Positions 1 to 57,922 of a stretch of DNA of 64,000 nt are shown piece after piece. The notes below the pieces were generated by a model. That model had not been told where the DNA came from. It did not search any database and was given only the letters and a program-made list of their open reading frames with translations. The position numbers and the translations under genes are program-made. This DNA comes from Candidatus Saccharimonadota bacterium (GTDB lineage: Bacteria > Patescibacteriota > Saccharimonadia > Saccharimonadales > SZUA-47): positions 641,449 to 705,448 of the forward strand of contig CP065013.1 of NCBI GenBank assembly GCA_016700315.1. Reading direction: 5' to 3'. Every line of letters starts with the position of its first letter. The stretch's first letter is position 1.

Positions 1-1
1 A

Positions 2-559
2 ATTGGCTATAAGCCCTGCGGCCCAAATGTCAGTGCAGAAGAAGTAGCTCTGCGAATGTTAAATGGCGAGACAATAGTTAAGCCAGGTGAAACCGCTGAA
101 TTTTTGAACGAAAACCCACAAGTAGAACTTGGCTTAAACAGATTCTATGAGCTTAGTAGCAGCGGCAACACGGCTTGGATAGACTACATCAGGAAAAATG
201 TTTCAATTACCAATGATGATGTACTTGACGGTGGTATAGACAGCGGTGTGAGGGCGCTCAAAGCTCGCACAGTTGCCTATGCGCTGGGTAACGATATGCG
301 TTTACAAAACCATCAATGTGACCCCAAAACTGGCGAGATTACTAGGCATGATGGTCCAAACAATAGATATAATAATCTTAAAGAGAATGACCAGGTGTGG
401 GTAATTGAATTAACTCCTGAACAGTTAGCAGATATGCAGGCTAGTGGAGCGAGTATCCCAGAAAATATAGTTATAATAGACGTAGATGACGAAACAAAAG
501 CCATTGTGTTGGAGCGTTTGGCTTGCAACAACCCTTTACTTGAACTCGTAAACTCATAA
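2..559 (+). CDS. hypothetical protein, 5' end outside window
   Basis: Reading frame is open from nt 2 to the stop at 557-559 (first ATG at 56). No recognisable motif. Confidence 0.45.
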   Translation: MGYKPCGPNVSAEEVALRMLNGETIVKPGETAEFLNENPQVELGLNRFYELSSSGNTAWIDYIRKNVSITNDDVLDGGIDSGVRALKARTVAYALGNDMRLQNHQCDPKTGEITRHDGPNNRYNNLKENDQVWVIELTPEQLADMQASGASIPENIVIIDVDDETKAIVLERLACNNPLLELVNS

Positions 560-711
560 TTCAAAGCATAAGCATTGTAAATATTCCTAAACCATTATGT
601 GATTGACTTATTTATTCCAGTTTCCTATACTTAAGTTAACCAAAATAACAGGGGCGGGTTGGTAAAACTAGCTAATTAAGCCGTCAAAATAAAAAAATAA
701 ACAAAAGTATG

Positions 712-740
712 TTGACAAAAATGCTAAGCAGTAGTATAAT
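712..740 (+). promoter_or_regulatory. sigma70-type promoter (TTGACA - 17 nt - TATAAT) upstream of the LPXTG protein gene
   Basis: TTGACA at 712-717 and TATAAT at 735-740, spaced 17 nt, about 55 nt upstream of the ATG at 794 (RBS GGAGAG). Confidence 0.5.
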
Positions 741-793
741 GCAATCAATAACTCTATAAAAAGCCGTGAGGGCCAGGAGTTGAAGGAGAGAAA

Positions 794-2803: not shown

Positions 2804-2895
2804 CAGTCTTGGTAAGAAAGCGAGCCTACTGCTACAATATAGGCAAGAGCAAGTGAGGTTCATTGACTGACCGCTACTCTTCAAAAAACCAAAAG

Positions 2896-2933
2896 GCACC
2901 CCCGAAGTAATTGCTTCGGGGGTGCTTATTTTT
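2896..2933 (+). terminator. rho-independent terminator
   Basis: 12-bp GC-rich stem (GCACCCCCGAAG / CTTCGGGGGTGC), 6-nt loop, then TTATTTTT. Confidence 0.7.
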
Positions 2934-2982
2934 GAGCTTAAATGTCTGGCTGCTACAATGGTAATAATAACTAGGAGTAAAG

Positions 2983-5685
2983 ATGCAGAAAAAATCAGTT
3001 TGGCAGCGTTTCGGAATCTTCTTTTATGATAAGTGGCGCTATACCTCATTGCTCATAGCTGTGGTAGCCGGTTTTGGTTTAGTCGCTTACACGACAATGA
3101 TGCGTAGGGAAGGGTTTCCTTCTGTTGAAATACCTGTCGGGTTTGTACAGGTGGTTTCGCTTGGGAGCGACGCCAAATCTAATGATCAGACCTTCGCGTT
3201 GCCGATAATCGAAGCCGCTAAACAAGCTAATGGTTTCAAAAAAGTCCAAGCTTCAAGTAGTGAACAGGGTAGTGCCGTTAGCATTACATTTAAAGACGGT
3301 ACAGATGTTCAATCGGAGCTAAATAAGCTTGAGGCAGGGCTGAAAGACAAATTACCGCAAAATGGCGCTCGGGTTGTTTATGTCAAAATCAATGCTAGTA
3401 AGTTTACGCCTGAGGGCGATGATTTACTAGTCAGCGTTCATGACGAATCATCTGATGCTGATGCGGTCGACAAAAAAGCAGCAGAGTTAGCGTCAATGAT
3501 CAAAAGTGCTGGTTTAAGTCAGGTTAAAGACGTCCATAATTTTCCTTCATTTGAGCGAAATGTTAACCCCGTAACTGGGGAGTCAAAGATTAGCCAAGTT
3601 AGGTTCGACAGATTCTATGATCAATCAAGCGATAAGTTCCTAACCTCTACACTAGTTGGAGTGACAGGGGTGGACAAGGCAGACCAACTAAAGCTTTATG
3701 ATCAGGTAAATGAGTTCCTGCACTCCGCAAGAGTCAAGGACGCAAATATAGATGGTGAGATCGCGCTTAGCTTTGCTGAGAATATTCGCGAGCAGATATC
3801 AGGGCTTCAACGAAACTTACTTGAAGGTTTAGCGGTTGTGCTACTTGTCAGCTTCATATTGATATCATTTAGAAGCTCAATCGTAACCGCTCTTTCCATG
3901 ACGATAACTGTGCTTGGTACCGTCGCCGTACTATATGCAATTGGCTATAGTCTAAATACGATCACACTGTTTTCGCTGGTGCTTTGCCTGGCACTGATAG
4001 TTGATGACACGACGATTATGGTAGAAGCAATTGATGCAGGCTTCAAAAAAGGCAAAAAATATCGCGATACGGTGCTAGAGGCTATTGGCAAGGTTATCCG
4101 CGCTTCCGCAACCGGGACACTGGCCACGATGTTGGCTTTTGCGCCGATGCTTTTTATTGGTGGCATACTAGGTAAATTCATCAAGGCCATACCTGTAACA
4201 ATAATCACTAGTCTTGGTGTAAGCCTGCTGGTGTCATTTATCTTTATTCCGCTATTAAAACGAGCGACATACGGCAAAATAATAAAGCATAAGAAAAGGG
4301 AGTTTCACCCAGCCGGTAAAATCGAAGAAGCTCTGGGCAATAGACTGTCGTCTACGCTCCGTTGGTCGGATCAAACTAGGCAAAGGCGCATACTAATGCG
4401 TCTTGGCGCTGTCATGGTCGGGCTTTCGTTCTTAGTGGCTGGCGGTCTAATATTTTCAAAAGTTAAGTTCAATATTTTTCCTAGCCCTAAAGACGGAACA
4501 GAAATTGTCGTTACGGCAAAAGTCAAGAACTCAGAAGCAGCTTCTATAGATTCAACTTCTGCAGTGACAGACCGTTCCTTATTGCTAATAAAAGACGTTT
4601 TAGGCGATGACCTAAGACATCTATCTTTAGTTGGTAACAGTGGCAGTGCCTCCTCTCAAGGTTACGGCGCGAACATCAGGCTATCGCCAATGAACGAGCG
4701 AAAGACTGGTTCGGTGGATTTGTCTCGTAAGCTTGAGACAGAGTTGAACGCAAGCGTACCAGAAATGTTTTTCAAGGTTACGCCTCAGGGAGCCGGTCCT
4801 CCTCCGGGCAGCTTTAGTGTTCAAGTAAATGCCGACAATGAACAGCAGGCCTATGTCTTGGCTAATGATGTGAAAAAGTTCCTCGAGACTACTTCAATCA
4901 AGCGACCTGATGGCAGTGAGGCTAAGTTTATTGAGTCTAGTGTGACACCATCGGTGATAGTTACTCGTAGTGGCAACCAAAGAGTGGTAACTGTAGATGC
5001 CAGGTTCAATGCTGATGACACCTCGGCATTGGTACAGCTGGGGCAAAAGCTAGTTGAGGACAAATATACGGCTGGCTACATTAAGTCGATTGGGGCAGAG
5101 CAGTCAAACATTTCCTTTGATTTTGGTTTCGAAGAAGAAAACCAGGAATCATTCGCCTCAATGGGTAAAGCCGCAGGGCCTTTGTTTCTAGCGATGTTCT
5201 TGATCATGGCGATTCTATTTAGGAGCTTGTTGCAGCCAATCTTGATTCTAACAGCTCTGCCTTTTGCCTTCTTTGGTGTAGCGGCTGGGCTATATTTAAC
5301 CAAAAATGAAATTAGCTTTTTCTCGATGCTTGGAGTTTTCGCGCTAATTGGGATTAGCCTTAACAACACGATCCTGCTAACCGACTATGCCAATCATTCC
5401 AGAGACAAGGGCCTAAAGCCTTCAGAAGCGATGGCTGCAGCCATCAAAGAACGTTTACGGCCTCTCCTCACCACCAGTATCACTAGTGTCTTGGCGCTTT
5501 TGCCGCTGGCGCTTAACGACCCATTCTGGGAAGGTTTAGCTTATGCGCTGATCTTCGGTTTGATATCTAGTACGCTTTTGGTGCTTCTGGTCTTCCCATA
5601 CTTTTACCTAATTGATGAGTCATTCAATAGCATTCTGGGCAGAGTTTTTAGGAAAGTCTTAAGGCACAAAACCAGAAAAGCTTAG
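2983..5685 (+). CDS. RND-superfamily efflux permease (AcrB-like, 900 aa)
   Basis: Two-fold pattern of one TM, a large loop and five TMs. Motifs LALIVDDTTIMVEAI and LIGISLNNTILLTDY are typical of RND TM4/TM10 regions. No adjacent membrane-fusion or outer-membrane partner. Confidence 0.7.
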   Translation: MQKKSVWQRFGIFFYDKWRYTSLLIAVVAGFGLVAYTTMMRREGFPSVEIPVGFVQVVSLGSDAKSNDQTFALPIIEAAKQANGFKKVQASSSEQGSAVSITFKDGTDVQSELNKLEAGLKDKLPQNGARVVYVKINASKFTPEGDDLLVSVHDESSDADAVDKKAAELASMIKSAGLSQVKDVHNFPSFERNVNPVTGESKISQVRFDRFYDQSSDKFLTSTLVGVTGVDKADQLKLYDQVNEFLHSARVKDANIDGEIALSFAENIREQISGLQRNLLEGLAVVLLVSFILISFRSSIVTALSMTITVLGTVAVLYAIGYSLNTITLFSLVLCLALIVDDTTIMVEAIDAGFKKGKKYRDTVLEAIGKVIRASATGTLATMLAFAPMLFIGGILGKFIKAIPVTIITSLGVSLLVSFIFIPLLKRATYGKIIKHKKREFHPAGKIEEALGNRLSSTLRWSDQTRQRRILMRLGAVMVGLSFLVAGGLIFSKVKFNIFPSPKDGTEIVVTAKVKNSEAASIDSTSAVTDRSLLLIKDVLGDDLRHLSLVGNSGSASSQGYGANIRLSPMNERKTGSVDLSRKLETELNASVPEMFFKVTPQGAGPPPGSFSVQVNADNEQQAYVLANDVKKFLETTSIKRPDGSEAKFIESSVTPSVIVTRSGNQRVVTVDARFNADDTSALVQLGQKLVEDKYTAGYIKSIGAEQSNISFDFGFEEENQESFASMGKAAGPLFLAMFLIMAILFRSLLQPILILTALPFAFFGVAAGLYLTKNEISFFSMLGVFALIGISLNNTILLTDYANHSRDKGLKPSEAMAAAIKERLRPLLTTSITSVLALLPLALNDPFWEGLAYALIFGLISSTLLVLLVFPYFYLIDESFNSILGRVFRKVLRHKTRKA

Positions 5686-5965
5686 AAATACGCGAACCAG
5701 TTGCTTAAAATGTACAGCGCCTGCAGGTAAGATGACAAGAACGATATAAGTCAGTTAAGTGAAATAGATTAGATGCTTGTTATTCATCAAAACGCCTGAC
5801 ATTTGCTGGAACCGTGCAAATACTAAGATACGACAAGTTGTACAACTGTTACTTTTCCCGAATGGAATTGTGTACGACTTTGAAACTGGTTTTGGAACCG
5901 CAGAAAAGATAAAATCTTATCTGTTAATAGAAAAAATGACGGATAATTCCGTCAAAAATTCTGAT

Positions 5966-6131
5966 TTGTTTATCTCACGGAGAATACTTTGTATAATCCG
6001 CCCGTTTGCCCTACTTCGCTAAAGCTTTGTAGAGCGGGGGATTAGCGAACTCCTTCGGAGTTCAAGATTTACACTGTAAATCCGCCAAGATAAAAACCCC
6101 AGGATAAATCCTGAGGTTCATATCTTGGTGA
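5966..6131. repeat. 166-bp direct repeat, copy B (distal from tRNA-Glu)
   Basis: 165/166 identical to 7190-7355. Contains a 14-nt copy of the tRNA-Glu 3' end (ATCTCACGGAGAAT on the + strand, 5972-5985). Confidence 0.9.
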
Positions 6132-6276
6132 ACTATGTTAAGTCGAAATCGAACGCAATCTGTACTGAGCTACTTGAAGTATACAGCTACATGAGAGCTA
6201 TAACAGCGATGGATAACATTCTCTTGCAGAGTAGAACCTACAGTATATCTTAGAGCTTGTCTTTCAACACTCTCAA

Positions 6277-7068
6277 CTACTTTGGCTGCCAGCCCTCCCA
6301 TGCACTAGCTATACCAGTCTCTGTCATATCTTTTGGTCGATAGCCAAGCAAGTCCGCAGCATCAAAATCAAACCTATCTTTATGCAGTGCTAAGAATCCT
6401 AACTGAGAAGTTAGTTCTTCAAAATAATGAGCATGGCTTAAGTATTCTGTTCTCATAAAACCGCTCTCGCCACCTCTCTGGCTCATTGGTCGCTCAAAGT
6501 CAGGTTTTGGATCGTAGCCCATTGCAAAGTAACCATCTTGCGTAATAAATGATTTCGTACCGTCTGGGCTACAAAATGTTAAGAGTGAATGCTTATCGGG
6601 CACTTGGTCAAGATAACCCTGAACGCCAGTAAGCAGTATGTCTCTAAAGCCCCAACCGTACATCATCTTGTGAAAATGGCTTTGGTAAACTTTTCGAAGA
6701 TGATCTGAATTAGAGCTTGTGAACATCTCCGCCTGATGTTCGGTGGGAGTTCTACTGACTGGTCCTGGGAAAAGCTCTTCTGGCTTAGGCTTTGCGATGT
6801 CAATTGTCAGGAAGCCCTCGCCTGTAAGTTGGGCATGTAATGCAGCAATCCGATCGCTATATTCACTATCTCTTAAGGCGTCCGAATCCGTTGGATAAGG
6901 TGAACCATAAATAGTTGTTTTCAATACTGAGCCAGCACGAGACATACCAATATAGTCCGAAATCGTTACGGCGTCATACCAAGCTTTCATCTCAGCTTCG
7001 GACACTTCGGGACTTTTCTCTATACCCTCTAATTCTTGAAGGAATCCTCTGGTTTCTCTCTCGCTCAT
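6277..7068 (-). CDS. hypothetical protein (263 aa), cargo between the 166-bp direct repeats
   Basis: Clean 263-aa ORF with no motif recognised. Lies between the repeat copies next to tRNA-Glu. Confidence 0.6.
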   Translation of the reverse strand: MSERETRGFLQELEGIEKSPEVSEAEMKAWYDAVTISDYIGMSRAGSVLKTTIYGSPYPTDSDALRDSEYSDRIAALHAQLTGEGFLTIDIAKPKPEELFPGPVSRTPTEHQAEMFTSSNSDHLRKVYQSHFHKMMYGWGFRDILLTGVQGYLDQVPDKHSLLTFCSPDGTKSFITQDGYFAMGYDPKPDFERPMSQRGGESGFMRTEYLSHAHYFEELTSQLGFLALHKDRFDFDAADLLGYRPKDMTETGIASAWEGWQPK

Positions 7069-7189
7069 AGCGATATTATCCTAATAAAAGATAGCCAATG
7101 CAAGCATGAGCAAAACGAAAAACAACAGATTACTTCGTCTGTTGTTTCCAAAATACACGGTGGTACTTATATTTCTTCTCTGTAATTTC

Positions 7190-7355
7190 TTGTTTATCTC
7201 ACGGAGAATACTTTGTATAATCCGCCCGTTTGCCCTACTTCGCTAAAGCTTTGTAGAGCGGGGGATTAGCGAACTCCTTCGGAGTTCAAGATTTACTCTG
7301 TAAATCCGCCAAGATAAAAACCCCAGGATAAATCCTGAGGTTCATATCTTGGTGA
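7190..7355. repeat. 166-bp direct repeat, copy A (abuts and overlaps the tRNA-Glu 3' end)
   Basis: 165/166 identical to 5966-6131. Its right end (GGTGA) overlaps the tRNA CCA/acceptor end. On the minus strand it contains a stem-loop followed by a T-run, a terminator for the tRNA. Confidence 0.9.
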
Positions 7356-7424
7356 TCTCACGGAGAATCGAACTCCGATTGCCAGGATGAAAACCTGGTG
7401 TCCTAACCGTTAGACGATGAGACC
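7350..7424 (-). tRNA. tRNA-Glu (anticodon UUC), CCA encoded
   Basis: Minus strand reads GGTCTCA TC GTCT AACGGTTA GGAC A CCAGG TTTTCAT CCTGG CAAT CGGAG TTCGATT CTCCG TGAGATC A CCA. This is a full cloverleaf of 75 nt. Confidence 0.85.
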
Positions 7425-7758
7425 TTGATATAACATTGTAAATGAACGGGGTTCGATTGGGAATCGACCTACCTAATTAGGCACTTTGTTGTGCTTTTGG
7501 GGTCCCTACAAAAACTTGTTTTTGTAGGGTGGTATGGATGAGACCACTTCGGAATGTGATGGTGTACTTTCCGTAGTGTCGACAAAACAAGTTTGCTCGA
7601 CACTACTAGAAACTTCACCAAGCTTCCTCGTTAGAAAAACTAAATCGGAATTTAGCTACCCCAAGAAACTTCGTTTGTTAAGATTTCTAACTAACTAGAT
7701 TTTCAACAACAAAATTATAACACAACAGAGGTAAAAGAGGAAGTGTATAATTAAAAGC

Positions 7759-8238
7759 ATGCACGTATTTTTTCATTTGATTTTTGCTTATGTGGGGCTT
7801 TGGCTTTTGACGAGAGAGTTTGGTAGAAAGTTCGAGCCGCGCAAACACTGGGGCTGGTTGGCCGTAGGCGTGGTTTTTGGGGTTTTGGCGGTACTTTCTT
7901 ACGATGTCTTTAGCGACTTGGTTGCCAATTGGATCTTACATTCTGTTGGTGGCGGCGCGGTAACGGCTCTAACTTACTTCTATTTCAAGGCTCACGTCAG
8001 GCCAAAATGGTCTTGGAGAGTGGATGCTGTCATGCTTTTTATGCTCGTATCGGCGCTCGGAGCAATCAACGAACTGGCTGAGTATGCTTACGAGTTAGCG
8101 CATCTTGGGACAATGAGCTTCGATACGCACGATACTTGGCGGGATCTAGTGGCAAATTCTGCCGGCGCACTGTTAACCTGGATTATCGTATCCTCACTTT
8201 TGAGAAAGAACTCCAACCCTGCTAGTAATAAAAGCTGA
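7759..8238 (+). CDS. hypothetical integral membrane protein (159 aa)
   Basis: About four hydrophobic helices. TATAAT at 7746-7751 lies only ~7 nt from the ATG, so the mRNA may be leaderless. Confidence 0.5.
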   Translation: MHVFFHLIFAYVGLWLLTREFGRKFEPRKHWGWLAVGVVFGVLAVLSYDVFSDLVANWILHSVGGGAVTALTYFYFKAHVRPKWSWRVDAVMLFMLVSALGAINELAEYAYELAHLGTMSFDTHDTWRDLVANSAGALLTWIIVSSLLRKNSNPASNKS

Positions 8239-9576
8239 TAATTTATTAACAGTTTCATTTAGTTTCCTTTCAACTGCTGATTCAGCCCAAATGCGGTAAA
8301 CAGGCTCGGTGCCTGAACCTCTAGTGTGGATTCTTACTACTCCCGCAACACTTTTTGCTGTATCGTTGATGAAGCTAATTGTTTCAGGGTCATTTGCTAT
8401 TTCTATTCCTGGGACTAGTTTGATGTTTTGCATTTTTTCATGCCACAAGGGTAACTCTTTGTATACGTTGGCAAATGTTTCGTCTAGGCTAGCGACTTTG
8501 CAGGCGAACCAAGCTGCCATATATACGCCGTCACCGCTCATTAGGTGGTCGGTGTCTATAAGGTGTCCGGTGAATTCGCCACCGCGCGTCCATTGACGAC
8601 CTTCTTGTTGCTTAATGATAAGGGCTTCAGTGACATTGCTATCACCGTTCTCGCAGTATTCAAAAGCTATGTTTTCTTCTCTTAGCTTTTTTACCAGACC
8701 ACTGTTAGTGTAATCAGTGCCAACTATCCCTGGCTGGCCTTGGGCAAGGTAGTACATAATATGGTTGCCTGTGATTTTGACGATCTTACCGTCAACCTTA
8801 CATACACCCATTACTCTGTCGCCGTCGCCATCATTAGCCAGCACACCCAAGAAGTCCTTGTCCGAAGCTTCGCTGTATTGTTCAATAAATCTTGTCGCTA
8901 GCGCAAGATCGTTGGCGCCGCAGCCGTCGTTGATCTTGCCACCCGGTTTGTCTATATGGATAACTCTAGCTCCTAGGGCTTTAAAGATTAGACTTGTGTA
9001 GTTTGCGGCTGCACCGTTGGCGGTGTCCAGAGCGATTGTCTTGTCTGCTAGGGGTCTTTCGCCAAAAGCAGATTTTAGTTTGTCTATAGTCTCAGTTAAG
9101 TAGGGTATGGATACTACATCGAAATATTTACCGTTTTGTTTGCTCCTGCTGCTACCCGCCATACCCCAAAACATATCTTCGATTACTCTGGCTTCTGCCT
9201 CGCTCGGCTTAAGCCCCTTTGGCCACAAAAACTTAAATCCGTTATATTCTTCCGGGTTATGACTAGCGGTGATAGAGATACCAAAAGCTCCTTCTTCAGA
9301 GCTTAATCTTTCAACCGAGGCACCAATGACGGGTGTCGGTGCTATGCCAAGGTCATAAACTTTTAAACCCTGATCGTAAGCGCCGCGCATTGCAGCGTCA
9401 GCTAAATCTCCCCCTGAAACTCGTGTGTCGCGGCCAAGGACAACTGTATCAGCGCCAGAAAACTCAGCACAAGCTGCAGCTAACCCATAAAATGTTGGAG
9501 GGCAAATCTCCCCAGGCACACCATGTTGCTTATATAGCCCTCTAACTCCGTCGGTTCCAAATAATGTTTTTGTCAT
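8194..9576 (-). CDS. phosphohexomutase (phosphoglucosamine / phosphomannomutase family)
   Basis: TASHNPEEYNGFKF (phospho-Ser loop), NDGDGDR (Mg loop), GGEFTGH (sugar loop), TRGSGTEPVYRI (phosphate loop). Confidence 0.85.
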   Translation of the reverse strand: MTKTLFGTDGVRGLYKQHGVPGEICPPTFYGLAAACAEFSGADTVVLGRDTRVSGGDLADAAMRGAYDQGLKVYDLGIAPTPVIGASVERLSSEEGAFGISITASHNPEEYNGFKFLWPKGLKPSEAEARVIEDMFWGMAGSSRSKQNGKYFDVVSIPYLTETIDKLKSAFGERPLADKTIALDTANGAAANYTSLIFKALGARVIHIDKPGGKINDGCGANDLALATRFIEQYSEASDKDFLGVLANDGDGDRVMGVCKVDGKIVKITGNHIMYYLAQGQPGIVGTDYTNSGLVKKLREENIAFEYCENGDSNVTEALIIKQQEGRQWTRGGEFTGHLIDTDHLMSGDGVYMAAWFACKVASLDETFANVYKELPLWHEKMQNIKLVPGIEIANDPETISFINDTAKSVAGVVRIHTRGSGTEPVYRIWAESAVERKLNETVNKLSAFITSRVGVLSQK

Positions 9577-35934: not shown

Positions 35935-36180
35935 AGTTACTTCCTATTTGGCTTACAATACCGTCAGCATCGGGGCTTAATACATTTTAGCCCAACTAAG
36001 TAATTTTGTGATTGTCCGAGCCAGGTTTTTCATATATAATCTGTATCTGTTAGATATGGAATTAGGTTATTGTGCCCGACAAAAGAGGGGATTGTTTTGT
36101 CGGAAGGCCGCGAAAATTTTGTAACGTAATTGTAAACAAAAAGTCACGTCTTTTGTTTACATAACGGTAACTAAATTTTC

Positions 36181-36257
36181 GCGGGTTTAGCTCAGTTGTT
36201 TAGAGCGCTTCCTTGCCAAGGAAGAGGTCGAGAGTTAGAGTCTCTTAACCCGCACCA
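36181..36257 (+). tRNA. tRNA-Gly (anticodon GCC), CCA encoded
   Basis: GCGGGTT TA GCTC AGTTGTTTA GAGC G CTTCC TTGCCAA GGAAG AGGTC GAGAG TTAGAGT CTCTT AACCCGC A CCA. The T-loop has A56, and the D-loop has GT where GG is usual. Confidence 0.8.
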
Positions 36258-36258
36258 A

Positions 36259-36445
36259 GTTAAGGCCCCACCAAGCGTGGGGTTTTTACTTGGTTTGAAT
36301 TAAGTTACTCTCAGATTCTCGACCTAGAGGTCGAGAGTGAGAAAGTCCAGTGGACTTTTGCAAGGAAACTTACTGATGAAAACTTGTTTTCAATCACGTA
36401 ATTTCGGGCCCGCGGAACGTGGGAGAGTCTCTTAACCCGCACCAA
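36259..36445 (+). repeat. structured 165-nt insert ending in a 22-nt duplicate of the tRNA-Gly 3' end
   Basis: AGAGTCTCTTAACCCGCACCAA occurs at 36237-36258 and 36424-36445. The insert carries a hairpin followed by GTGAGAAAGTCCAGTGGA (also at 30721-30739) and a CUUG-tipped hairpin. Confidence 0.8.
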
Positions 36446-36600
36446 ATATCTGAATTATGAGCCGAAAGGCTCTTTTTCTTTGCCTCAACGATGGTTTTAG
36501 AGGGACCGTTTAGCACATAGGACAGCTTTTTATCCTTTAACTCAATGTTTGAAATCTCGTTATTTTGCAAAAATAGTATTTTAGTTATAAAATAAGATTT

Positions 36601-37311
36601 ATGTCCATTTATGATTGGGAGAGGGAATCCTTTACTCCTCCTTATGATCAATATTTAGAGGTTAATGAACTTCAAGCCCCGATTCAAGCAGAGCGTCGCT
36701 TGTTAGGAGGTTTCCTTAGAGGGTCAATATTGCCGCTATCTGTTGTTGCGGCTTGCGCTGTTTCTTTTACTGCCGGTAAAAGCTGGGCAGAACCGGATAC
36801 AAGCAGACGAGATGCGGCAGGGATCACTTCCGAACTAAAAGATCAGGCAAGATCGGTCGTAGAACTAGAAGGCTCTATTTCTTTCCTTGCACATAAACTT
36901 ACTGGAGAGGATGTCGCTGTACGTTGCGAGAACATAGGCAGGAGTAGCCAATTCGCTGGATACAAGGTCAGTGGTATGTACACAAGAACTGTTGCAGGCA
37001 AAAGTCCCAAGATTACACTGACACCAGAAATTTGCCTCGGCATTATCTATAACACATCTATGCCGTACTCTGCGGACGATCCGACTAAGTGGGGGGATAC
37101 GAATGCTATTCTATCCGTACGAGTTATTGCCCACGAAATTGCTCACGTTAGCGGGATCTCAGATGAGGGTGAAGCAAATTGCCGCGGTGCTGAGTATTTT
37201 CACGCTGTTGCACATGGGCTAGGTATCCGTGCGGCGATCGAGGTTGCCGATCCAAAGGAGCTGTATGCAAAAAGTGCTGCCCCTGCCATATATCATTCTG
37301 CTGGTTGCTAA
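36601..37311 (+). CDS. hypothetical membrane-anchored protein with an HExxH metallopeptidase motif
   Basis: One TM (ILPLSVVAACAVSF) and VIAHEIAHVSG. Confidence 0.5.
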   Translation: MSIYDWERESFTPPYDQYLEVNELQAPIQAERRLLGGFLRGSILPLSVVAACAVSFTAGKSWAEPDTSRRDAAGITSELKDQARSVVELEGSISFLAHKLTGEDVAVRCENIGRSSQFAGYKVSGMYTRTVAGKSPKITLTPEICLGIIYNTSMPYSADDPTKWGDTNAILSVRVIAHEIAHVSGISDEGEANCRGAEYFHAVAHGLGIRAAIEVADPKELYAKSAAPAIYHSAGC

Positions 37312-37345
37312 ACAAAACTATTAATGGGTTATAATAAGCTGTAAT

Positions 37346-37419
37346 GGCGCCTTGGCCGAGAAGTTAGGCAGAGGTCTGCAAAACCTCGTAGGCGGGAGCG
37401 TTACCCGCAGGTGCCTCCA
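37346..37419 (+). tRNA. tRNA-Cys-like (anticodon GCA, discriminator U), non-canonical T- and D-loops
   Basis: GGCGCCT TG GCC GAGAAGTTA GGC A GAGGT CTGCAAA ACCTC GTAG GCGGG AGCGTTA CCCGC AGGTGCC T CCA. The acceptor and anticodon stems pair well, but the T-loop lacks TTC. Confidence 0.6.
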
Positions 37420-37452
37420 AAGCTCTTTAAAAAATAATAAATTTGACAATTC

Positions 37453-37538
37453 GGGCGAGTGGTGGAATGGTTTACACAGAGGACTTAAAATCCTTGCCGC
37501 TAAAACGGTTGTGGGTTCGAATCCCACCTCGCCCACCA
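37453..37538 (+). tRNA. tRNA-Leu (anticodon UAA), long variable arm, CCA encoded
   Basis: GGGCGAG TG GTG GAATGGTTTA CAC A GAGGA CTTAAAA TCCTT GCCGCTAAAACGGTT GTGGG TTCGAAT CCCAC CTCGCCC A CCA. Confidence 0.9.
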
Positions 37539-37574
37539 TTTCAGAGAAAAAATCCAAATCTGCGCCCAGACTTT

Positions 37575-37683
37575 TGCATTTTTGGATTTTTACCCCCGCC
37601 GAATTTCTTTTTTGGATTTGGAAAAAGTCCGGTCGGGCAGTTTGCTGCCGCATTGCGGCAAATGTGCGGGAGTAGTGTGCGAC
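37575..37683. repeat. left arm of an imperfect ~105-bp inverted repeat flanking the aldehyde dehydrogenase gene
   Basis: ...CCCCCGCCGAATTT...GGATTTGGAAAAAGTC...CTGCCGC.TTGCGGCAAATG...AGTAGTG.GCG is the reverse complement of 39114-39219, roughly 80% identical by eye. Confidence 0.85.
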
Positions 37684-37714
37684 GTATCACTGATTAATAT
37701 GATATTATTTGACC

Positions 37715-39112
37715 ATGAAACTTGCCTCTACCAATCCAGCGGATAGTTACAAAATTATTGGTTATGTCGATGTATCTACACCAGAGGAAATAAAACAAAA
37801 GGTAGCCAGTGCTCAGAAAGTGAAGACCATATGGAAGGAGCTAGGCGTTACTGCTCGTATCGAACTTCTGCGCCCAATCCAAGCTGAATTTCGAGATCGT
37901 GCAACTGAGATCGCCGAGCTTATTAGCCTTGAAACAGGTAAGCCTATTGTCGAAGCACTGAGTGAAGCAGAACGCTATACTAATATTGAACTTGGCTGGT
38001 TCCTAGAAAACGGTTTGAAGGCTCTTGCTGGCGAAACTGTTTTCGAAGACGATGAGTCACGCCACTATATTGTCTACGAACCGCATGGCGTTGTCGCAGC
38101 AATCGCACCGTGGAACTTTCCTTTTGGCATGGCGATATGGGGCATTTTCCCTAATTTGATTGCCGGAAATACAGTTGTCTTTAAAATATCGGAAGAATGC
38201 CCATTAGTTGGTAAACTCATTGAACAGATTATCACCAGTCACAACTTGCCTGAAGGTGTGTTCGGCGAAGTGTACGGCGACGGCAAAGTCGGAAAGTTGC
38301 TTACAGAACAGGACATCGACCTTATATGGTTCACTGGTAGCACAGCCACAGGTAAGGCGCTGTACAAAACCGCAGCTAACAAATTCATAAAAGCTGTTCT
38401 TGAAATGGGTGGCTCGAGCCCTTGTGTTGTTTTTGATGATGTGGATATAGCTGAAGCAGCACCTATTATTTTTAGTGGGCGTTTCCAGCATAATGGCCAA
38501 GTGTGTAGCGCACTAAAACGCCTCATAGTGCACGAAGATATTGCTGATAAATTGTTATCCGAGCTAAAAATGCTTCTTGACCAACAGAAAATAGGTGATC
38601 CACTTAATCAAAGCTTTAATCGTGGTAGTTTAGTTGCTGAGCGGCAGGTGACACTCTTGCAAGAGCAATATAACGACGCACTTGTTAAAGGTGCCAAAAT
38701 CGCTGCTCAAACTAAAGTACCCAAAGACCTCAAAGGCGCGTTTTTCCCGCCCACACTCCTTACTAACGTCACAAGAGATATGCGCGTCTGGAAAGAAGAA
38801 GTCTTTGGGCCAATATTTCCAATTGTTACTTTTGCAACAGAGGCAGAAAGCGTGGAATTAGCTAACGATACACTTTATGGTTTGACTGCACGCGTTATGT
38901 CAAAAGACATTGATCGGGCCAGGAGAGTTGCAGCAAAAATTGATGCTGGTACAGTAAGCCTAAACCTTGAATCACGGTTCCTACCAGCTGATCCATTCGG
39001 GGGTTATAAAAATTCTGGTATGGGACGCGAACGCGGTATTCATGGGTTACGAGAATTATGCCAAATTAAAGTTATGCAGGAAAACAAAAGTATGCAAGCC
39101 GGCGAAGGTTAA
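37715..39112 (+). CDS. NAD(P)-dependent aldehyde dehydrogenase
   Basis: FTGSTATGK, LEMGGSSP (catalytic Glu region), GQVCSALKR (catalytic Cys), EEVFGP. ATG at 37715, or TTG at 37709. Confidence 0.85.
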   Translation: MKLASTNPADSYKIIGYVDVSTPEEIKQKVASAQKVKTIWKELGVTARIELLRPIQAEFRDRATEIAELISLETGKPIVEALSEAERYTNIELGWFLENGLKALAGETVFEDDESRHYIVYEPHGVVAAIAPWNFPFGMAIWGIFPNLIAGNTVVFKISEECPLVGKLIEQIITSHNLPEGVFGEVYGDGKVGKLLTEQDIDLIWFTGSTATGKALYKTAANKFIKAVLEMGGSSPCVVFDDVDIAEAAPIIFSGRFQHNGQVCSALKRLIVHEDIADKLLSELKMLLDQQKIGDPLNQSFNRGSLVAERQVTLLQEQYNDALVKGAKIAAQTKVPKDLKGAFFPPTLLTNVTRDMRVWKEEVFGPIFPIVTFATEAESVELANDTLYGLTARVMSKDIDRARRVAAKIDAGTVSLNLESRFLPADPFGGYKNSGMGRERGIHGLRELCQIKVMQENKSMQAGEG

Positions 39113-39113
39113 A

Positions 39114-39219
39114 CGCGCACTACTTCCTCGCATTTGCCGCAAAGCGGCAGCGAACCGACCGCCCAGACTTTTTCCAAATCCAAAAAAATTCGGCGGGGGA
39201 AAGTTCAAAAAATATGCAA
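39114..39219. repeat. right arm of the inverted repeat flanking the aldehyde dehydrogenase gene
   Basis: Begins 2 nt after the ALDH stop codon. Reverse complement of 37575-37683. Confidence 0.85.
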
Positions 39220-39328
39220 TAGTCGGGGCGGTCGGGGCGTAGTGGGCGCAAGCCTGCACCCACTTGCGTTACTCACCATTTTTCCTCAAAATAGGTTCTA
39301 GCGGAGTTGTAGAACTTCACCAAATATG

Positions 39329-39352
39329 AAGCCAGCATAAGCTGGTTTTTTT
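39329..39352 (+). terminator. rho-independent terminator downstream of the ALDH cassette
   Basis: AAGCCAGC ATAA GCTGGTTT followed by TTTT. Confidence 0.55.
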
Positions 39353-39407
39353 GTTGATTAGAGTAAACTTGAGAGGAAAAATAAATATTTTGTTATACTA
39401 AAAACAG

Positions 39408-40850
39408 ATGAAAAAAGCATACTACGTTACAACTTCTATACCATATGTGAATGGCGACCCTCACATTGGTTTTGGCATGGAGATTATCCAAGCTGATGTA
39501 CTGGCACGCTATGCCAGGCAGCAGGGTAATGAGGTGCTATTCTCCACCGGAACAGATGAACACGGCACAAAAGTAGCCGAAAAGGCGATCGAGGAAAACA
39601 AAGACGTTGTTGAATTTGTACAAGAAAAGTCTGACAGTTTTAGAGAGCTATGCAAAGCGCTGAACATCAGCAATGATCGCTTTATTCGTACCACTGACAA
39701 AGGTCATGAGCAGCGCTCGCAGATTATCTGGCAGAATCTAAAAAAAGGCGACATTTACAAAGGTAAGTACGTAGGTTGGTATGATGTTCGACAGGAGGAA
39801 TTTGTCACCGAGAGCCAGGCCGATCCAGAACGTATGAAGCCCGATCATCCTCAAGCCTACCGCAAACTCGAAGAAGAAAACTACTTCTTTAAGCTCAGTG
39901 CCTACACCGAAGAAGTTAAGCAAGCCATTAAAAGTGGTAAGTTTGAGATTATCCCTCAAAAACGCCGTAATGAGATTTTGGCAGTGCTAGAGAAAGGCTT
40001 AGAAGACATTAGTGTGTCTAGGCCAAAAGACAAGATAAGTTGGGGTGTGCCTGTGCCGGGTGATGACACCCAAGTAATGTACGTTTGGTTTGAGGCGCTG
40101 ATGAACTACATCACGGTACTTGGTTACCCGGAATTCGATGATTTTAAGAGGTTCTGGCCAGCCAACGTGCAAGTAATCGGCAAAGATATTATTCGTTTTC
40201 ATGCGGCGATTTGGCCTGCAATGCTACTGAGTCTTGGACTTAGTTTACCTAAAAAGCTTTATGTTCACGGATTCATAAATGTTGACGGCCAAAAAATGAG
40301 CAAAAGTATAGGCAATGTTATTGCACCAAAAGAGATCCTTGGTAAGTACGGCGTAGATACATACCGCTACTTTTTCCTACGCCACACTAGCAGTAGTGAC
40401 GACGGTGATTTTACATGGGACAAGTTGGCTAAGGCTTACAACGGCGAACTGGCTAACGAACTTGGGAATGCTGTTAGCCGTGTGGCAAGCATGATAACGC
40501 GTTACCAAGCAGGCGTGATAGGCGACGTGCCAGAAAGCAAGCACGATCGTCGTGAGTATGACGCAGCAATGGAAAAATGCCAATTCGACATTGCGCTCTC
40601 GGAGGTTTGGGAGCAAGTTCGGGGTCTAAATCAGTTTATCGACGAAACCAAGCCCTGGGTGATAGCAAAGGAGCAAGATCCGGAGCATCTACAAGATGTA
40701 CTGGCGCAGGCCGTCAGCGATCTGCTACAGGTAGCTGAGCTATTGGTACCGTTCATGCCAGACACAGCAAGCAAGATTGAGCATATTTTTGTTAAAGGCG
40801 TAGTGCGCATGCCGAAAGAGAATTTATTCCCAAGACTTGAAATCGGGTGA
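39408..40850 (+). CDS. metG: methionyl-tRNA synthetase (short form)
   Basis: PYVNGDPHIGF (HIGH), QKMSKSIGN (KMSKS), 480 aa. Confidence 0.9.
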   Translation: MKKAYYVTTSIPYVNGDPHIGFGMEIIQADVLARYARQQGNEVLFSTGTDEHGTKVAEKAIEENKDVVEFVQEKSDSFRELCKALNISNDRFIRTTDKGHEQRSQIIWQNLKKGDIYKGKYVGWYDVRQEEFVTESQADPERMKPDHPQAYRKLEEENYFFKLSAYTEEVKQAIKSGKFEIIPQKRRNEILAVLEKGLEDISVSRPKDKISWGVPVPGDDTQVMYVWFEALMNYITVLGYPEFDDFKRFWPANVQVIGKDIIRFHAAIWPAMLLSLGLSLPKKLYVHGFINVDGQKMSKSIGNVIAPKEILGKYGVDTYRYFFLRHTSSSDDGDFTWDKLAKAYNGELANELGNAVSRVASMITRYQAGVIGDVPESKHDRREYDAAMEKCQFDIALSEVWEQVRGLNQFIDETKPWVIAKEQDPEHLQDVLAQAVSDLLQVAELLVPFMPDTASKIEHIFVKGVVRMPKENLFPRLEIG

Positions 40851-41147
40851 GTTGATAGTTGATAGAAGAGACAAGAAGCAAGAGACAAGAGATAAGACGC
40901 AAGAGTCATGAGCCAAGAGCCAAGAGCCAAGAGCCAAGAGCTAGGGACTAGGGTCTAGGGTCTAGGGTCTAGCAGGTATTACCCCGTACCCTGTACTGCG
41001 TACCCCGTACCTCCTAGGGACTAGGGTCCAGGGTCTAGGGACCAGTTTATAGTTTATAGTTAATACTTGATACTATCTTTGTTTAGAATTTAGTGCTTAG
41101 GATTTAGAATTTATGCTAACTACTTGCTACTTTCTACTAACTACTTT
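40851..41147. repeat. heptamer-mosaic element A (abutting runs of 7-nt tandem repeats)
   Basis: Runs: GTTGATA x2; AGAGACA-like x7; GCCAAGA x4; CTAGGGT/CTAGGGA x5; CCGTACC-like x5; TAGGGNC x4; TTTATAG x2; TTAGAAT-like x4; CTACT-type x4. Starts 1 nt after the metG stop. Confidence 0.9.
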
Positions 41148-52912: not shown

Positions 52913-53288
52913 GGACGAGTTTATTTAAGAGCCAAGATTAGGTTTGAGGTTATAGGTTAGAGGTTATAGTGATTAGAGCTACGGACTAGTAGTTAGTAGT
53001 TGGTAGTTAGTAGTTGGTAGTTAGTAGTTAGTAGTTAGCAAATATTACCCCGTACCCTGTACTGCGTACCCCGTACCTCCTAGGGCCTAGGGACGAGTTT
53101 ATAGTTTATAGTTGATGGTTTATGGAAGAGCCGTGAGGCAAGAGACAAGACGCAAGAGTCATGAGCCAAGAGCTAGGGACTAGGAGCTAGGGTCTAGCGA
53201 ATACTACCCCGTACCCCGTACTGCGTACCGTCTAGGGACTAGGGTCTAGTTTCGAATTTCGTCCTCACTCCTCACGACTCACTACAAT
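52913..53288. repeat. heptamer-mosaic element C (~54 heptads)
   Basis: Runs of NNAGGTT x4; TAGTAGT/TGGTAGT x7; CCGTACC-like x4; CCTAGG x2; TTATAGT x3; AGAGNCA x6; GGGACTA-like x4; GTACCCC x3; CTAGGGN x2; ACTCCTC-like x3. Shares 43 identical nt with element A. Confidence 0.9.
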
Positions 53289-54749: not shown

Positions 54750-55098
54750 GCTAATAGGGGTATAGGACGAGTTTATAGTTTATAGTTGATAGTTGATAGA
54801 AGAGCCAAGATTAGGTTAGAGGTTATAGGAAGAGCCAAGATTAGGTTAGAGGTTTATGGAAGAGACAAGATTAGGTTAGAGGTTAGAGGTTATAGTGATT
54901 AGTAGGACTACGGACTAGTAGTTAGTAGGTAGTAGTTAGTAGGTAGCAAGTATTACGCCGTACCGCGTACCTCGTACCACGTACCGACTAGGGACTAAAG
55001 TCTAGGGAACAGGGTCTATTTTAGAATTTAGTGCTTTGGATTTAGGATTTTATACTTCATGCTTGCTACCAACTACCATCTACCAACTTACCTCATTA
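54750..55098. repeat. heptamer-mosaic element D (contains a 3 x 30-nt higher-order repeat at 54801-54890)
   Basis: GTTTATA x2; GTTGATA x2; AGAGCCAAGATTAGGTTAGAGGTT(A)TAGGA x3; GTAGTTA/GTAGGTA x4; GTACCNC x5; CTAGGGA-like x4; GGATTT-type; CTACCA x3. Confidence 0.9.
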
Positions 55099-57660: not shown

Positions 57661-57922
57661 TAGGAACGAGGGGGGAGTTAGCGGTTAGTAGCAAGTAGTT
57701 AGTAGTAAGTAGCAAGCGTTAAATTCTAAATTCTAAAATAGACCCTGGACCCTGGACCCTAGTCCCTGGTCCCTAGCTCTTGGCTCTACTTGAACAGTAC
57801 GCAGTAAGAGGTACGCGGTACGGGGTAATATTTGCTAACTACCAACTACCAACTACCAACTACCAACTACTAACTACTGGTCCATTGCCCTAATCACTCT
57901 AACCTATAACCTCTAACCTAAT
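57661..57922. repeat. heptamer-mosaic element E (reverse-complement orientation relative to A, C and D)
   Basis: Contains GGTACGGGGTAATATTTGCTAACTACC, the reverse complement of the GGTAGTTAGCAAATATTACCCCGTACC module in C, plus GACCCTG/GTCCCTA, AACTACC x5 and TAACCT runs. Confidence 0.9.

Follow-up and report, generated by a model that had tools for sequence, protein, structure and literature searches.

Here we show that an aldehyde dehydrogenase (ALDH) gene in the genome of a Candidatus Saccharimonadota bacterium lies in an inserted segment of 1,784 bp (positions 37539–39322), which begins directly after the 3′ end of a tRNA-Leu(UAA) gene and is absent from conspecific strains. This segment is best read as the recombinase-less remnant, or cargo module, of a small integrative element that belongs to Saccharibacteria and uses the 3′ ends of tRNA genes as its targets, a reading to which we give a probability of roughly 0.78. 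The DNA analyzed, hereafter the window, is a 64-kb stretch of GenBank contig CP065013.1; coordinates are positions in this window, and locus identifiers such as L013 denote public genome or metagenome contigs that were compared with it. An earlier reading of the window sequence alone (the original prediction) had described the ALDH gene as tightly bracketed by inverted repeats next to tRNA genes, and had likened the unit to a foldback-type mobilisable cassette or a pair of miniature inverted-repeat transposable elements (MITEs). That idea holds in so far as there is a cargo cassette at a tRNA hot spot which some strains carry and others lack; its movement, however, we attribute to a serine-recombinase attachment system and not to the inverted repeats.

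Occupied and empty sites at the tRNA-Leu gene

The exact MetG protein encoded downstream of the segment was looked up in public assemblies. An identical MetG is encoded on a contig that is identical to the window and bears the insert (L012) and on two that do not. The latter, L013 (Logan ERR15976586) and L016 (ENA ERZ28613422), are independent contigs of the same species with flanks 99–100% identical to the window, and exactly 37539–39322 is missing from them. By BLAST, L013 positions 1782–2760 correspond to window positions 36560–37538 and L013 positions 2756–4372 to 39318–40934, the two matches overlapping by the 5 nt CACCA. At the empty site, 37538 is joined directly to 39318/39323, the tRNA-Leu CCA end is followed by the native terminator upstream of metG, and the junction reads ...CTCGCCCACCA|AATATGAAGCCAGC. 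Since a 5-nt overlap cannot cause a de Bruijn mis-join, we regard the empty site as real.

The insert is bounded by a 5-bp CACCA repeat, of which one copy is the tRNA-Leu CCA end (37534–37538) and the other lies at 39318–39322. Occupied junctions were found in other samples, the left one in L001–L003 and L005 and the right one in L012 and L017–L021. Samples with the cassette include SRR14092359, SRR14092372, SRR20818728, SRR35215089 and ERZ15185725. The ALDH unit is thus an insertion, as had been proposed, present or absent among near-identical strains (L012 versus L013 and L016), and its position one base after the CACCA of tRNA-Leu(UAA) agrees with the proposed placement at a tRNA insertion hot spot. 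The insert extends for a further 24 nt beyond the left arm and for 87 nt beyond the right one, and the arms are therefore not the termini of a mobile unit, contrary to what the original prediction implied. We refer to the outermost 24 nt on the left as the lead and to the outermost 87 nt on the right as the tail; alignment with MAFFT showed that they are not inverted repeats of each other.

The same junctions could be read in the opposite direction, with the ALDH cassette ancestral, the empty strains arising by deletion between the two CACCA pentamers, and no insertion in this lineage. A 5-bp microhomology at both ends is the trace that such a deletion by illegitimate recombination is expected to leave. 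However, the deletion would have to start at the exact last base of the tRNA and to restore a tRNA CCA end with an intrinsic terminator behind it, as is usual for tRNA genes without an insert. The right CACCA also recurs as a conserved end of the tail in many elements that occupy other tRNA genes, and more distant ALDH homologues stand without arms at other loci (see below). Site-specific excision would give the same product, and would support mobility. We consider an ancestral cassette improbable.

The inverted-repeat arms of the window cassette

The inverted repeats around the ALDH gene are real, and slightly longer than the ~105 bp first described. A repeat search found two inverted pairs, 37608–37681 with 39114–39187 (74 nt, 86% complementary) and 37590–37610 with 39182–39202 (21 nt, 90%), which MAFFT joins and extends, with small indels, to arms of ~37563–37681 (119 nt) and 39114–39235 (122 nt) that are 82% identical over 134 aligned positions. 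A spacer of 33 nt separates the left arm from the ALDH ATG (37715), and the right arm starts 1 nt past the stop codon (39112), in keeping with the tight spacing noted earlier, and the terminator likewise lies outside the right arm, where its hairpin (39328–39349) and T-run stand beyond the insert. Each arm contains exactly one copy of each of the three conserved blocks named in the original prediction. At 0 mismatches the window has no others, and the match counts of these blocks at the allowed mismatches were reached by no shuffle. Direct-repeat similarity between the two arms extends over 13 nt at most. No further copies of the arm or tail, and no other long inverted repeats of that kind, were found in the window.

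Each arm is itself a long imperfect hairpin (hairpin 1) together with a second, small GC hairpin (hairpin 2). When folded as RNA and compared with shuffles, the left arm is weakly better (z = −1.8) and the right arm reaches z = −4.0 on either strand. An additional inverted repeat pairs 37548–37563 with 37576–37591, the lead and the start of the left arm forming an AT-rich hairpin. In two strain variants of the window cassette, L001 and L004, the right arm is a mosaic with an outer half derived from other arm types, which indicates that arms recombine with other elements in the population.

Arms and cargo in other genomes

The arm pattern CCCCCGCCGAATTT-N10-20-AAAAGTC was scanned over one genome per prokaryotic species. 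It was found at 22 loci, 19 of them titled Saccharibacteria or Saccharimonas and three bearing other labels. L041, one of these three, was rejected as a chance match; L045, labelled 'Arachnia', has the full element layout described below, and its label is probably a binning error. Paired inverted arms 1.2–2.2 kb apart are present at nine of the 22 loci. The cargo between them is unrelated to ALDH and differs by locus: LD-carboxypeptidase, inositol monophosphatase (IMPase) with NUDIX, methyltransferase with NUDIX, methyltransferase with HD, HAD phosphatase with an EamA transporter, an AraC regulator with glyoxalase, PfkB kinase with an MBL hydrolase, and proteins of unknown function. The arms are thus not unique to the ALDH locus; had they been, this would have spoken against mobility by the standard set in the original prediction. 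Wherever a recombinase is in view, the arms elsewhere stand in the layout of a recombinase element. The other copies comprise recombinase-less cassettes, arms at the end of a contig, and single arms, which were counted without regard to their surroundings.

The window ALDH has no NCBIfam equivalog at cutoff, and its closest relatives come from Saccharibacteria and Patescibacteria. An ALDH 86% identical to it is the cargo in L007 and L008, where arms of 136 nt, 98% identical to each other, are followed by the tail, by a second type of repeat (X) and by a gene for a large serine recombinase (LSR). The tail and arm type of the window match this L007/L008 clade. ALDH homologues with 72–74% identity (L022, L023) form tight two-ALDH operons at other loci and have no arms, so the arms do not travel with ALDH genes in general. 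In L023 the ALDH pair (6001–8775) is preceded at 1–5962 by genes resembling those of conjugation and type IV secretion systems (PrgI, TraC-like, a DUF87/TraG P-loop ATPase, an M23 peptidase and VirD4/TrwB-like); the position of its 73%-identical ALDH directly downstream of such genes is notable on a Saccharibacteria-type contig. Neither the arm pattern nor the recombinase had a match among IMG/VR viral contigs, and the element is accordingly not evidently phage-borne.

Layout of the intact elements

Block mapping, tRNA calls, junction sequences and self-BLAST gave a common layout for intact members of the family, with L036, L042, L037 and L007 as exemplars. Over 4–6 kb it reads: tRNA 3′ CCA, X, LSR, X′, tail′, arm′, cargo of one to three genes, arm, tail, host. 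Two long inverted repeats are therefore nested in each element. X and X′ (IR-B) bracket the LSR and measure 129–167 nt in the arm-pattern loci and ~86–171 nt across the family, with a constant inner gap of ~1,550 nt in the arm-pattern loci. Tail plus arm (IR-A), inverted on both sides of the cargo, measures 161–272 nt in the arm-pattern loci and ~160–490 nt across the family. IR-A and IR-B meet, with an overlap of ~5 nt, at a 5–6 bp core (CACCA/TGGTG) that is also the end of the tRNA. In L031, at a tRNA-Thr ending ...GCTCCA, and in its relative L045 the core is CTCCA/TGGAG. Intact elements in L042 and L038 occupy the same target as the window cassette, tRNA-Leu(UAA).

The end of the tail (GGTTCnAGC...N...CACCA) resembles the segment of a tRNA from the T-loop to CCA. 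Such likeness is expected if the tail is one half of the element attachment site and the tRNA end is the matching chromosomal half, and the tail is thus presumed to be the P half. Within the conserved tail (TACAACnnCGCTnGAACCTATTTT ... CACCA), a 24-nt motif, found in the window at 39288–39311, is identical in L007, L008, L036, L038, L042 and L049, and a tail-like motif adjoins X in 10 of 11 metagenome loci examined.

The LSR has ~520–560 aa with the domains PF00239, PF07508 and PF13408, and among solved structures the A118 integrase is nearest to it (E = 8e-6). Its best NCBIfam match is CcrB (E = 4e-31; 108 bits against a cutoff of 900), followed by CcrC (79 against 900) and CcrA (76 against 700); an assignment to the CcrA, CcrB or CcrC equivalogs was rejected, the scores being far below these cutoffs. 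The 3′ end of the LSR gene lies in X and faces the tRNA. Its reading frame extends past X and the core onto the antisense strand of the target tRNA gene, the full length of which it crosses in L031, L032 and L037 (Table 1). A frame that passes through the core implies that the C-terminal 14–28 residues would differ between the integrated and the excised state.

Within nine LSR-bearing elements the two IR-A copies are 97.8–100% identical, with the LSR-bearing L026a as an exception at 91%; identity is 80–96% between elements and 82% in the window. IR-B copies are 98–100% identical within an element. As IR-A copies are more alike within an element than between elements, the two copies evolve in concert.

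This layout bears directly on whether the arms are terminal inverted repeats or a MITE pair, with a transposase acting in trans to move the ALDH gene as a foldback or composite transposon. Several features suit that explanation: long inverted repeats stand tightly around a single gene, the unit contains no recombinase, the indel has a direct repeat of 5 bp on either side, and the arms recur in other genomes around other genes. However, the repeats are not at the ends of the insert, and there is no target-site duplication at the arm ends. The flanking 5-bp repeat is the tRNA CCA end together with the conserved end of the tail, it also ends the tail in other elements, and it becomes CTCCA along with the target tRNA (L031, L045), so that it behaves as an attachment core and not as a transposon target-site duplication. 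The window contains no dispersed copies of the arms. Where an LSR is in view in other genomes the arms lie within the recombinase-element layout, and the ORF lists contain no DDE transposase conserved beside the arms, the site-specific serine recombinase being the only conserved gene. What the window cassette shares with MITEs, foldback elements and composite transposons is the presence of inverted repeats around DNA without a transposase, and we consider a transposon of this kind highly improbable.

A recombinase-anchored metagenome sample

Metagenome contigs were also searched with an alignment of the recombinase, independently of the arm pattern, and 80 loci were kept. At least 587 of the 600 candidate stretches examined encode relatives of the recombinase, and a protein search gave more than 120 clusters at 66% identity or above. 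A tRNA on the opposite strand abuts the LSR 3′ end at 53 of the 59 loci with at least 120 nt downstream, and 25 isoacceptors are represented. IR-B is present at 43 of the 50 loci with enough upstream sequence. The cargo within IR-A spans ~1.5–3.4 kb in this set.

Distant members have other arm sequences and a similar design: the tail is conserved, and there are GC-rich hairpins as well as a long hairpin whose loop is rich in either G or C. In five of these loci (Table 1) the cargo-bracketing repeat has a G-rich hairpin loop of 20–25 nt with Shine-Dalgarno-like AGGAGG/GGGAGGAA motifs. The loop is the C-rich complement at L112 1381–1542, and arms of the window type have the C-rich loop motif CCCCCGCCG.

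Many LSR contigs, including some among P0121–P0240, are 1.7–2.1 kb long, the size expected if assemblies break at IR-B. ALDH contigs of 1.4–1.7 kb (among L009–L011 and L004–L006) end at mirror positions in the two arms. Public assemblies break systematically inside the repeats, and cargo and LSR genes will therefore often go unbinned or misbinned, as in the probable case of L045. In L088 a terminal inverted duplication of 1.7 kb with 99.9% identity includes the LSR gene (1–1717/4228–5945), and in L097 X, tail and arm flank the LSR on both sides (1–476/2057–2532). These two contigs and L082 could be taken for excised circles or palindromes, but we did not use them as evidence because an assembler walking through a perfect inverted repeat gives the same picture.

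The window cassette as a probable recombinase-less remnant

As the original prediction had noted, neither a transposase nor a recombinase lies inside the ALDH unit: tblastn with the L007 recombinase found nothing in the 64-kb window (best E = 1.5). For this reason we class the window copy as a recombinase-less derivative and not as an autonomous member of the family. It lacks the LSR, X′, the proximal tail′ and all of X apart from the 24-nt lead, which, judged by eye, is similar to the beginning of X in L032 and L038 and also to a palindromic spacer in L043. It retains homologous arms on both sides, and their divergence, together with the missing proximal tail′, would fit a decayed copy.

Comparable cassettes occur elsewhere. 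L039 shares 2.55 kb of cargo with the LSR-bearing L026 at 96.7% identity and reads tRNA-Gly, ~42 nt, arm, cargo, arm, tail. A cargo inversion between L026a and L039 was considered and dropped, since both have the same orientation once aligned by the tRNA/LSR side and L039 is a recombinase-less derivative. In L024 only the final 27 nt of an arm stand next to the CCA of tRNA-Leu(UAA), and behind them come the cargo and a complete distal arm. L043, with half an arm, and L026b, in tandem behind an LSR-bearing element, are further recombinase-less cassettes. The proximal truncations all differ, which favours repeated decay, that is, domestication of the cargo, over a designed satellite.

We propose the following history. 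The LSR would recombine the element site (tail|X, with a tRNA-like tail half) with the tRNA 3′ end and the DNA downstream of it, and the anatomy of the elements and the empty site suggest that crossover takes place in the CACCA core. An ALDH-carrying element of the L007 type would have integrated at tRNA-Leu(UAA), where the insertion and its exact boundaries are observed. Most of X, together with the LSR, X′ and tail′, would later have been lost, as in the parallel cases of L039 and L024, leaving the order tRNA, 24-nt lead, arm, ALDH, arm′, tail, native terminator and metG. The ALDH gene would then have a promoter of its own at the inner edge of the left arm and would probably yield a leaderless transcript. 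If the cassette were excised, its circle would read ...GTTGTAGAACTTCACCA|TTTCAGAGAAAAAATCC (tail-CACCA-TTTCAGAG).

Alternatively, the cassette could be a satellite that is non-autonomous and still mobile, in which the ends tRNA|lead and tail|host serve as functional hybrid attachment sites and a family LSR encoded elsewhere in the genome or the community, with a directionality factor, would excise and re-integrate it in trans. The presence or absence of the insertion among strains with 99% identical flanks would agree with such mobility, as would CACCA cores in direct orientation at both ends, a lead resembling the start of X, and an intact tail whose 24-nt motif is identical to that of intact elements. 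Recombinase-less cassettes recur (L026b in tandem, L039, L024, L043), and some LSRs are followed by another tail′-arm′ instead of a tRNA (L082, L090, L094, L119), suggesting arrays. On the other hand, the irregular tRNA-proximal truncations, namely the 24-nt lead in the window, ~42 nt in L039, 27 nt of arm in L024 and half an arm in L043, look like independent decay. Because the lead and the tail appear to come from different subfamilies, a single LSR might fail to bind the two. A circle junction (tail-CACCA-lead) was not seen, and the 64-kb window holds no recombinase. We regard a still-mobile satellite as rather unlikely.

Several observations weigh against a decayed integrative element, or at least against its simplest form. 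No excised circle or excision junction was observed, the attachment sites and the crossover position being drawn from junction comparisons, and an LSR-bearing progenitor was not seen in the species of the window. The lead is like the X of the L032/L038 subfamily and the tail is of the L007/L036 type, so that the history may include tandem accretion and not one deletion. In the recombinase-anchored sample, adjacent IR-A was detected at only 13 of the 27 loci with at least 3 kb upstream. Inside the element, the X′|tail′ junction duplicates the presumed attachment site exactly and in inverted orientation, for which the model has no explanation. Finally, decay in situ would not by itself account for arms of 82% identity next to flanks that are 99% identical to those of empty-site strains; the mosaic arms point to recombination, and exchange between these arms and other elements would explain the difference.

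Possible roles of the arms

Whichever role is assigned to the arms, our confidence in it is low. With roughly even odds, we suggest that they could be hairpin-rich, mirror-image boundary modules around the cargo that also provide portable homology for the exchange of cargo between elements. Given their inverted orientation, recombination between the arms would only flip the cargo and never delete it. Two simpler proposals were discarded. A conserved small protein encoded in the arms is contradicted by ORFs that cross them in different frames between elements. A fixed site-specific inner boundary for cargo exchange was suggested by the many arms that end in the core-like ...CGGTGGT, but the repeat stops ~45 nt earlier in L036, L038 and L042.

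The arms could instead act at the RNA level, through pairing of the 5′ and 3′ ends of the ALDH mRNA or as hairpins that serve as 3′-end, terminator or stability elements or as small RNAs for any cargo they enclose, in which case the inverted arrangement would serve regulation and not mobility. Hairpins 1 and 2 covary across arm types: 77.9% of cells pair, against 38–58% with the partner slid, 15 pairs have changes in both partners and none of 500 shuffles attains the observed value, a comparison that involves a handful of independent types. The better-than-shuffled folding of the right arm is also in line with this proposal, as is the conservation of arms at 80–88% between elements whose LSRs are only ~52% identical, and the shifting frames show that the arms are non-coding. 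However, the mismatches conserved in hairpin 1 are C.T or G.A and not G.U wobble on either strand, and mosaic arms (L025, L043 and the right arm of L039) break hairpin 1 yet persist. A search of 36000–41000 against Rfam 15 (E <= 1) matched three tRNAs and nothing else. The hairpins are not followed by a U-tract, and a terminator scan found no signature in the arms, the sole terminator being the native one outside the insert.

The position of the promoter also bears on an RNA-level role. The sequence TGATATTAT at 37700–37708 looks like an extended −10 box and lies 6 nt before the ALDH ATG, a distance that implies a leaderless transcript, and a similar TGnTATAAT is found ahead of the cargo genes of L036 and L043, immediately within the boundary of the arm. 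A scan of the window for the promoter consensus gave no match in the arms or at the ALDH spacer, which has no −35 box. With cargo promoters probably inside the arm boundary, the 5′ arm would probably not be transcribed with the gene, which makes 5′/3′ pairing unlikely. An RNA-level role would leave the presence/absence polymorphism unexplained, and would be compatible with a decayed integrative element as a role for its arms. As an account of the locus in its own right, we consider it quite unlikely.

With regard to an invertible DNA switch, the orientation of the cargo relative to the LSR varies between close relatives (L007 versus L008; L036 versus L042 and L038), and in the species of the window one orientation was seen (L001–L005, L012), with no recombinase in the window. 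The constant orientation of the LSR to the tRNA suggests that assemblers usually resolve the repeats. With perfect repeats of 90–180 nt, and with an IR-A longer than IR-B, the differences in cargo orientation may nevertheless reflect the path chosen by the assembler.

It is conceivable, although unlikely, that the double inverted-repeat design is itself functional, belonging to a new kind of mobile element and being no mere by-product, each module being flanked by inverted copies of a complete attachment site and hairpin arms. An excised element would then carry two identical inverted attachment sites, and the window cassette would be an exchangeable unit. Such a design could allow natural recombinase-mediated cassette exchange or inversion, in which cargo is swapped or flipped and never deleted. 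Alternatively, it could provide strand symmetry: either single strand taken up by these naturally competent bacteria would fold into a dumbbell with a single double-stranded attachment site, and both strands would offer identical cis-elements on entry.

Genomic surroundings

The coordinates of the features are collected in Table 1. Upstream of the tRNA-Cys and tRNA-Leu genes, the last 20 nt of a tRNA-Gly(GCC) gene, GAGTCTCTTAACCCGCACCA, lie at 36238–36257, and an exact second copy is found 187 nt downstream at 36425–36444. Judged from its sequence, this repeat is the classic signature of an old integration that would have duplicated the tRNA 3′ end in the style of a tyrosine integrase, its putative remnant now being ~167 nt. 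On the evidence of this remnant and of the ALDH cassette, the tRNA-Gly/Cys/Leu cluster appears to be an insertion hot spot.

The empty-site strain L013 differs from the window upstream of 36560. Its positions 1–1781 carry a fragment of a short-chain dehydrogenase and a Zn-alcohol dehydrogenase (PF08240/PF00107) directly upstream of a 236-aa gene. The dehydrogenase segment ends beside a tRNA-like 3′ fragment (...GGTTCGAACCCGGTCGGTGCCTCCA, minus strand), where the window has tRNA-Gly and the remnant. This is a second strain-variable segment, ~1 kb from the ALDH insert. Farther downstream, the window contains inverted tandem-repeat arrays at 52939–53172, 54799–54946 and 57676–57877, with units of 7, 14 and 30 nt (TAGTAGT, AACTACC, GAAGAGCCAAGATTAGGTTAGAGGTTATAG). 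These arrays are ~2.7–4.8 kb apart, were reported as inverted pairs of 67–123 nt, and are unrelated to the ALDH arms.

Table 1. Features of the ALDH locus in the window, with corresponding features of other loci in the last two rows.
Feature	Position	Strand	Basis
tRNA-Cys(GCA), host gene upstream of the target tRNA	37346–37419	+	ARAGORN; Rfam tRNA match, 40.7 bits
tRNA-Leu(UAA), integration target; its 3′-terminal CACCA (37534–37538) is the left core copy (5 bp)	37453–37538	+	ARAGORN; empty-site contigs L013, L016
Whole inserted segment, 1,784 bp, absent from conspecific strains	37539–39322	+	BLAST of L013 and L016 against the window
Lead, 24 nt, probably remnant of an X-type start (recombinase-side half of the attachment site)	37539–37562	+	Resemblance by eye
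Left inverted-repeat arm (IR-A, cargo-bracketing repeat of the family); degenerate, outer stem truncated	37563–37681	+	Repeat search, MAFFT
Unique spacer with probable ALDH promoter	37682–37714	+	Read from sequence
ALDH coding sequence, 465 aa, cargo gene; ATG 37715, stop 39112	37715–39112	+	PF00171, E = 1.7e-131
Right inverted-repeat arm (IR-A); hairpin 2 at 39131–39150, long hairpin 1 at 39155–39235	39114–39235	-	Repeat search, MAFFT
Tail, 87 nt, outer part of IR-A in intact elements; end GGTTCTAGCGGAGTTGTAGAACTTCACCA; right core CACCA 39318–39322	39236–39322	+	24-nt motif common to relatives
Native intrinsic terminator, host DNA outside the insert; hairpin 39328–39349 and T-run	39328–39359	+	Terminator scan; L013 sequence
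metG (methionyl-tRNA synthetase), host flank	39408–40850	+	Pfam PF09334, E = 4e-105
LSR frames reaching into the tRNA	L031 4553–6169; L032 71–1768; L037 2898–4568; L036 3873–5453; L042 553–2133		
G-rich-loop repeats	L063 3123–3275; L072 2802–2972; L081 2141–2338; L082 1–487; L086 87–391		

Comparison with known systems

Judged from its anatomy, the element appears to be a site-specific serine-integrase integrative element that leaves recombinase-less remnants, and its closest functional parallels are the staphylococcal cassette chromosomes (SCC) with their ψSCC remnants, the cis-mobilizable elements (CIMEs) and the tycheposons. In SCCmec and ψSCC of staphylococci, as here, an LSR places a cargo cassette at a specific site, the 3′ end of a conserved housekeeping gene, and remnants without recombinase (ccr-less) accumulate with tandem arrays at the same site; the family LSR also finds its best NCBIfam match in CcrB. 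In contrast to SCC, which targets rlmH, the elements described here target the CCA end of many tRNA genes, and they are 4–6 kb long with one to three cargo genes. We know of no counterpart in SCC to the two long, near-perfect inverted-repeat pairs around recombinase and cargo.

CIMEs are att-flanked remnants, mobilizable in cis, of integrative and conjugative elements and integrative and mobilizable elements of Firmicutes with tyrosine or serine integrases, and their mobilisation by accretion has been shown experimentally. The window copy similarly looks like a cargo segment between two hybrid attachment sites without recombination genes of its own, but its tRNA-proximal end is irregularly truncated and its mobilisation is putative.

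Tycheposons of Prochlorococcus carry tyrosine recombinases in 474 of 501 cases, use partial tRNA copies as attachment repeats and contain a replication module (bioRxiv 10.1101/2020.12.28.424599). They too are small cargo-carrying integrative elements of a streamlined genome that target several tRNA 3′ ends and occur beside tRNA genes as degenerate elements and tandem integrations (bioRxiv 10.1101/2020.12.28.424599). The elements described here differ in having an LSR, a core of ~5 bp, no replication gene and modules bracketed by long inverted repeats.

In architecture alone, the excised form would resemble the yeast 2-micron plasmid and plastid genomes. Its circle, itself hypothetical, would consist of two unique halves between inverted arm-tail-core-X copies of ~330–400 bp each; the repeat copies are kept identical within an element, and the cargo half occurs in either orientation to the LSR in the assemblies of relatives. 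However, the LSR half has not been seen flipped (the 53 of 59 loci above have the same orientation to the tRNA), the recombinase is a serine enzyme in place of the tyrosine recombinase FLP, and no replication function is present.

Integron cassettes with their attC sites offer a further likeness, in that promoter-proximal cassettes of one or a few genes with variable cargo are associated with imperfect palindromes of 60–140 nt with conserved mismatches. We rejected an integron cassette because the arms are inverted and not direct, and because the sole conserved associated enzyme is a serine recombinase and not an IntI tyrosine recombinase. The R″/R′ core (GTTRRRY) was not seen in the arms by eye, no dedicated search having been run; moreover, the cargo genes here appear to have their own promoters, and the mobility boundaries are the CACCA cores and not the hairpins.

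Significance for Saccharibacteria

Saccharibacteria and other bacteria of the candidate phyla radiation (CPR) have tiny genomes, and the routes by which they gain genes are poorly characterised. The locus described here represents a concrete route of gene gain in CPR bacteria, in which a minimal LSR element brings one to three metabolic or housekeeping-type genes to tRNA CCA ends, and single genes such as the ALDH gene stay behind as strain-variable cargo after loss of the LSR. In the literature on serine recombinases, inverted repeats and integrative elements of Saccharibacteria and Patescibacteria, we found no description of this element family, which is abundant in metagenomes and apparently undescribed, as are the nested near-perfect inverted repeats around each of its modules. 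These repeats pose an unsolved mechanistic question, and the assembly breaks that they cause may hide cargo in metagenome bins. The LSRs of the family, with their short tRNA-mimicking attachment sites, are candidate genetic tools for organisms that are hard to manipulate.

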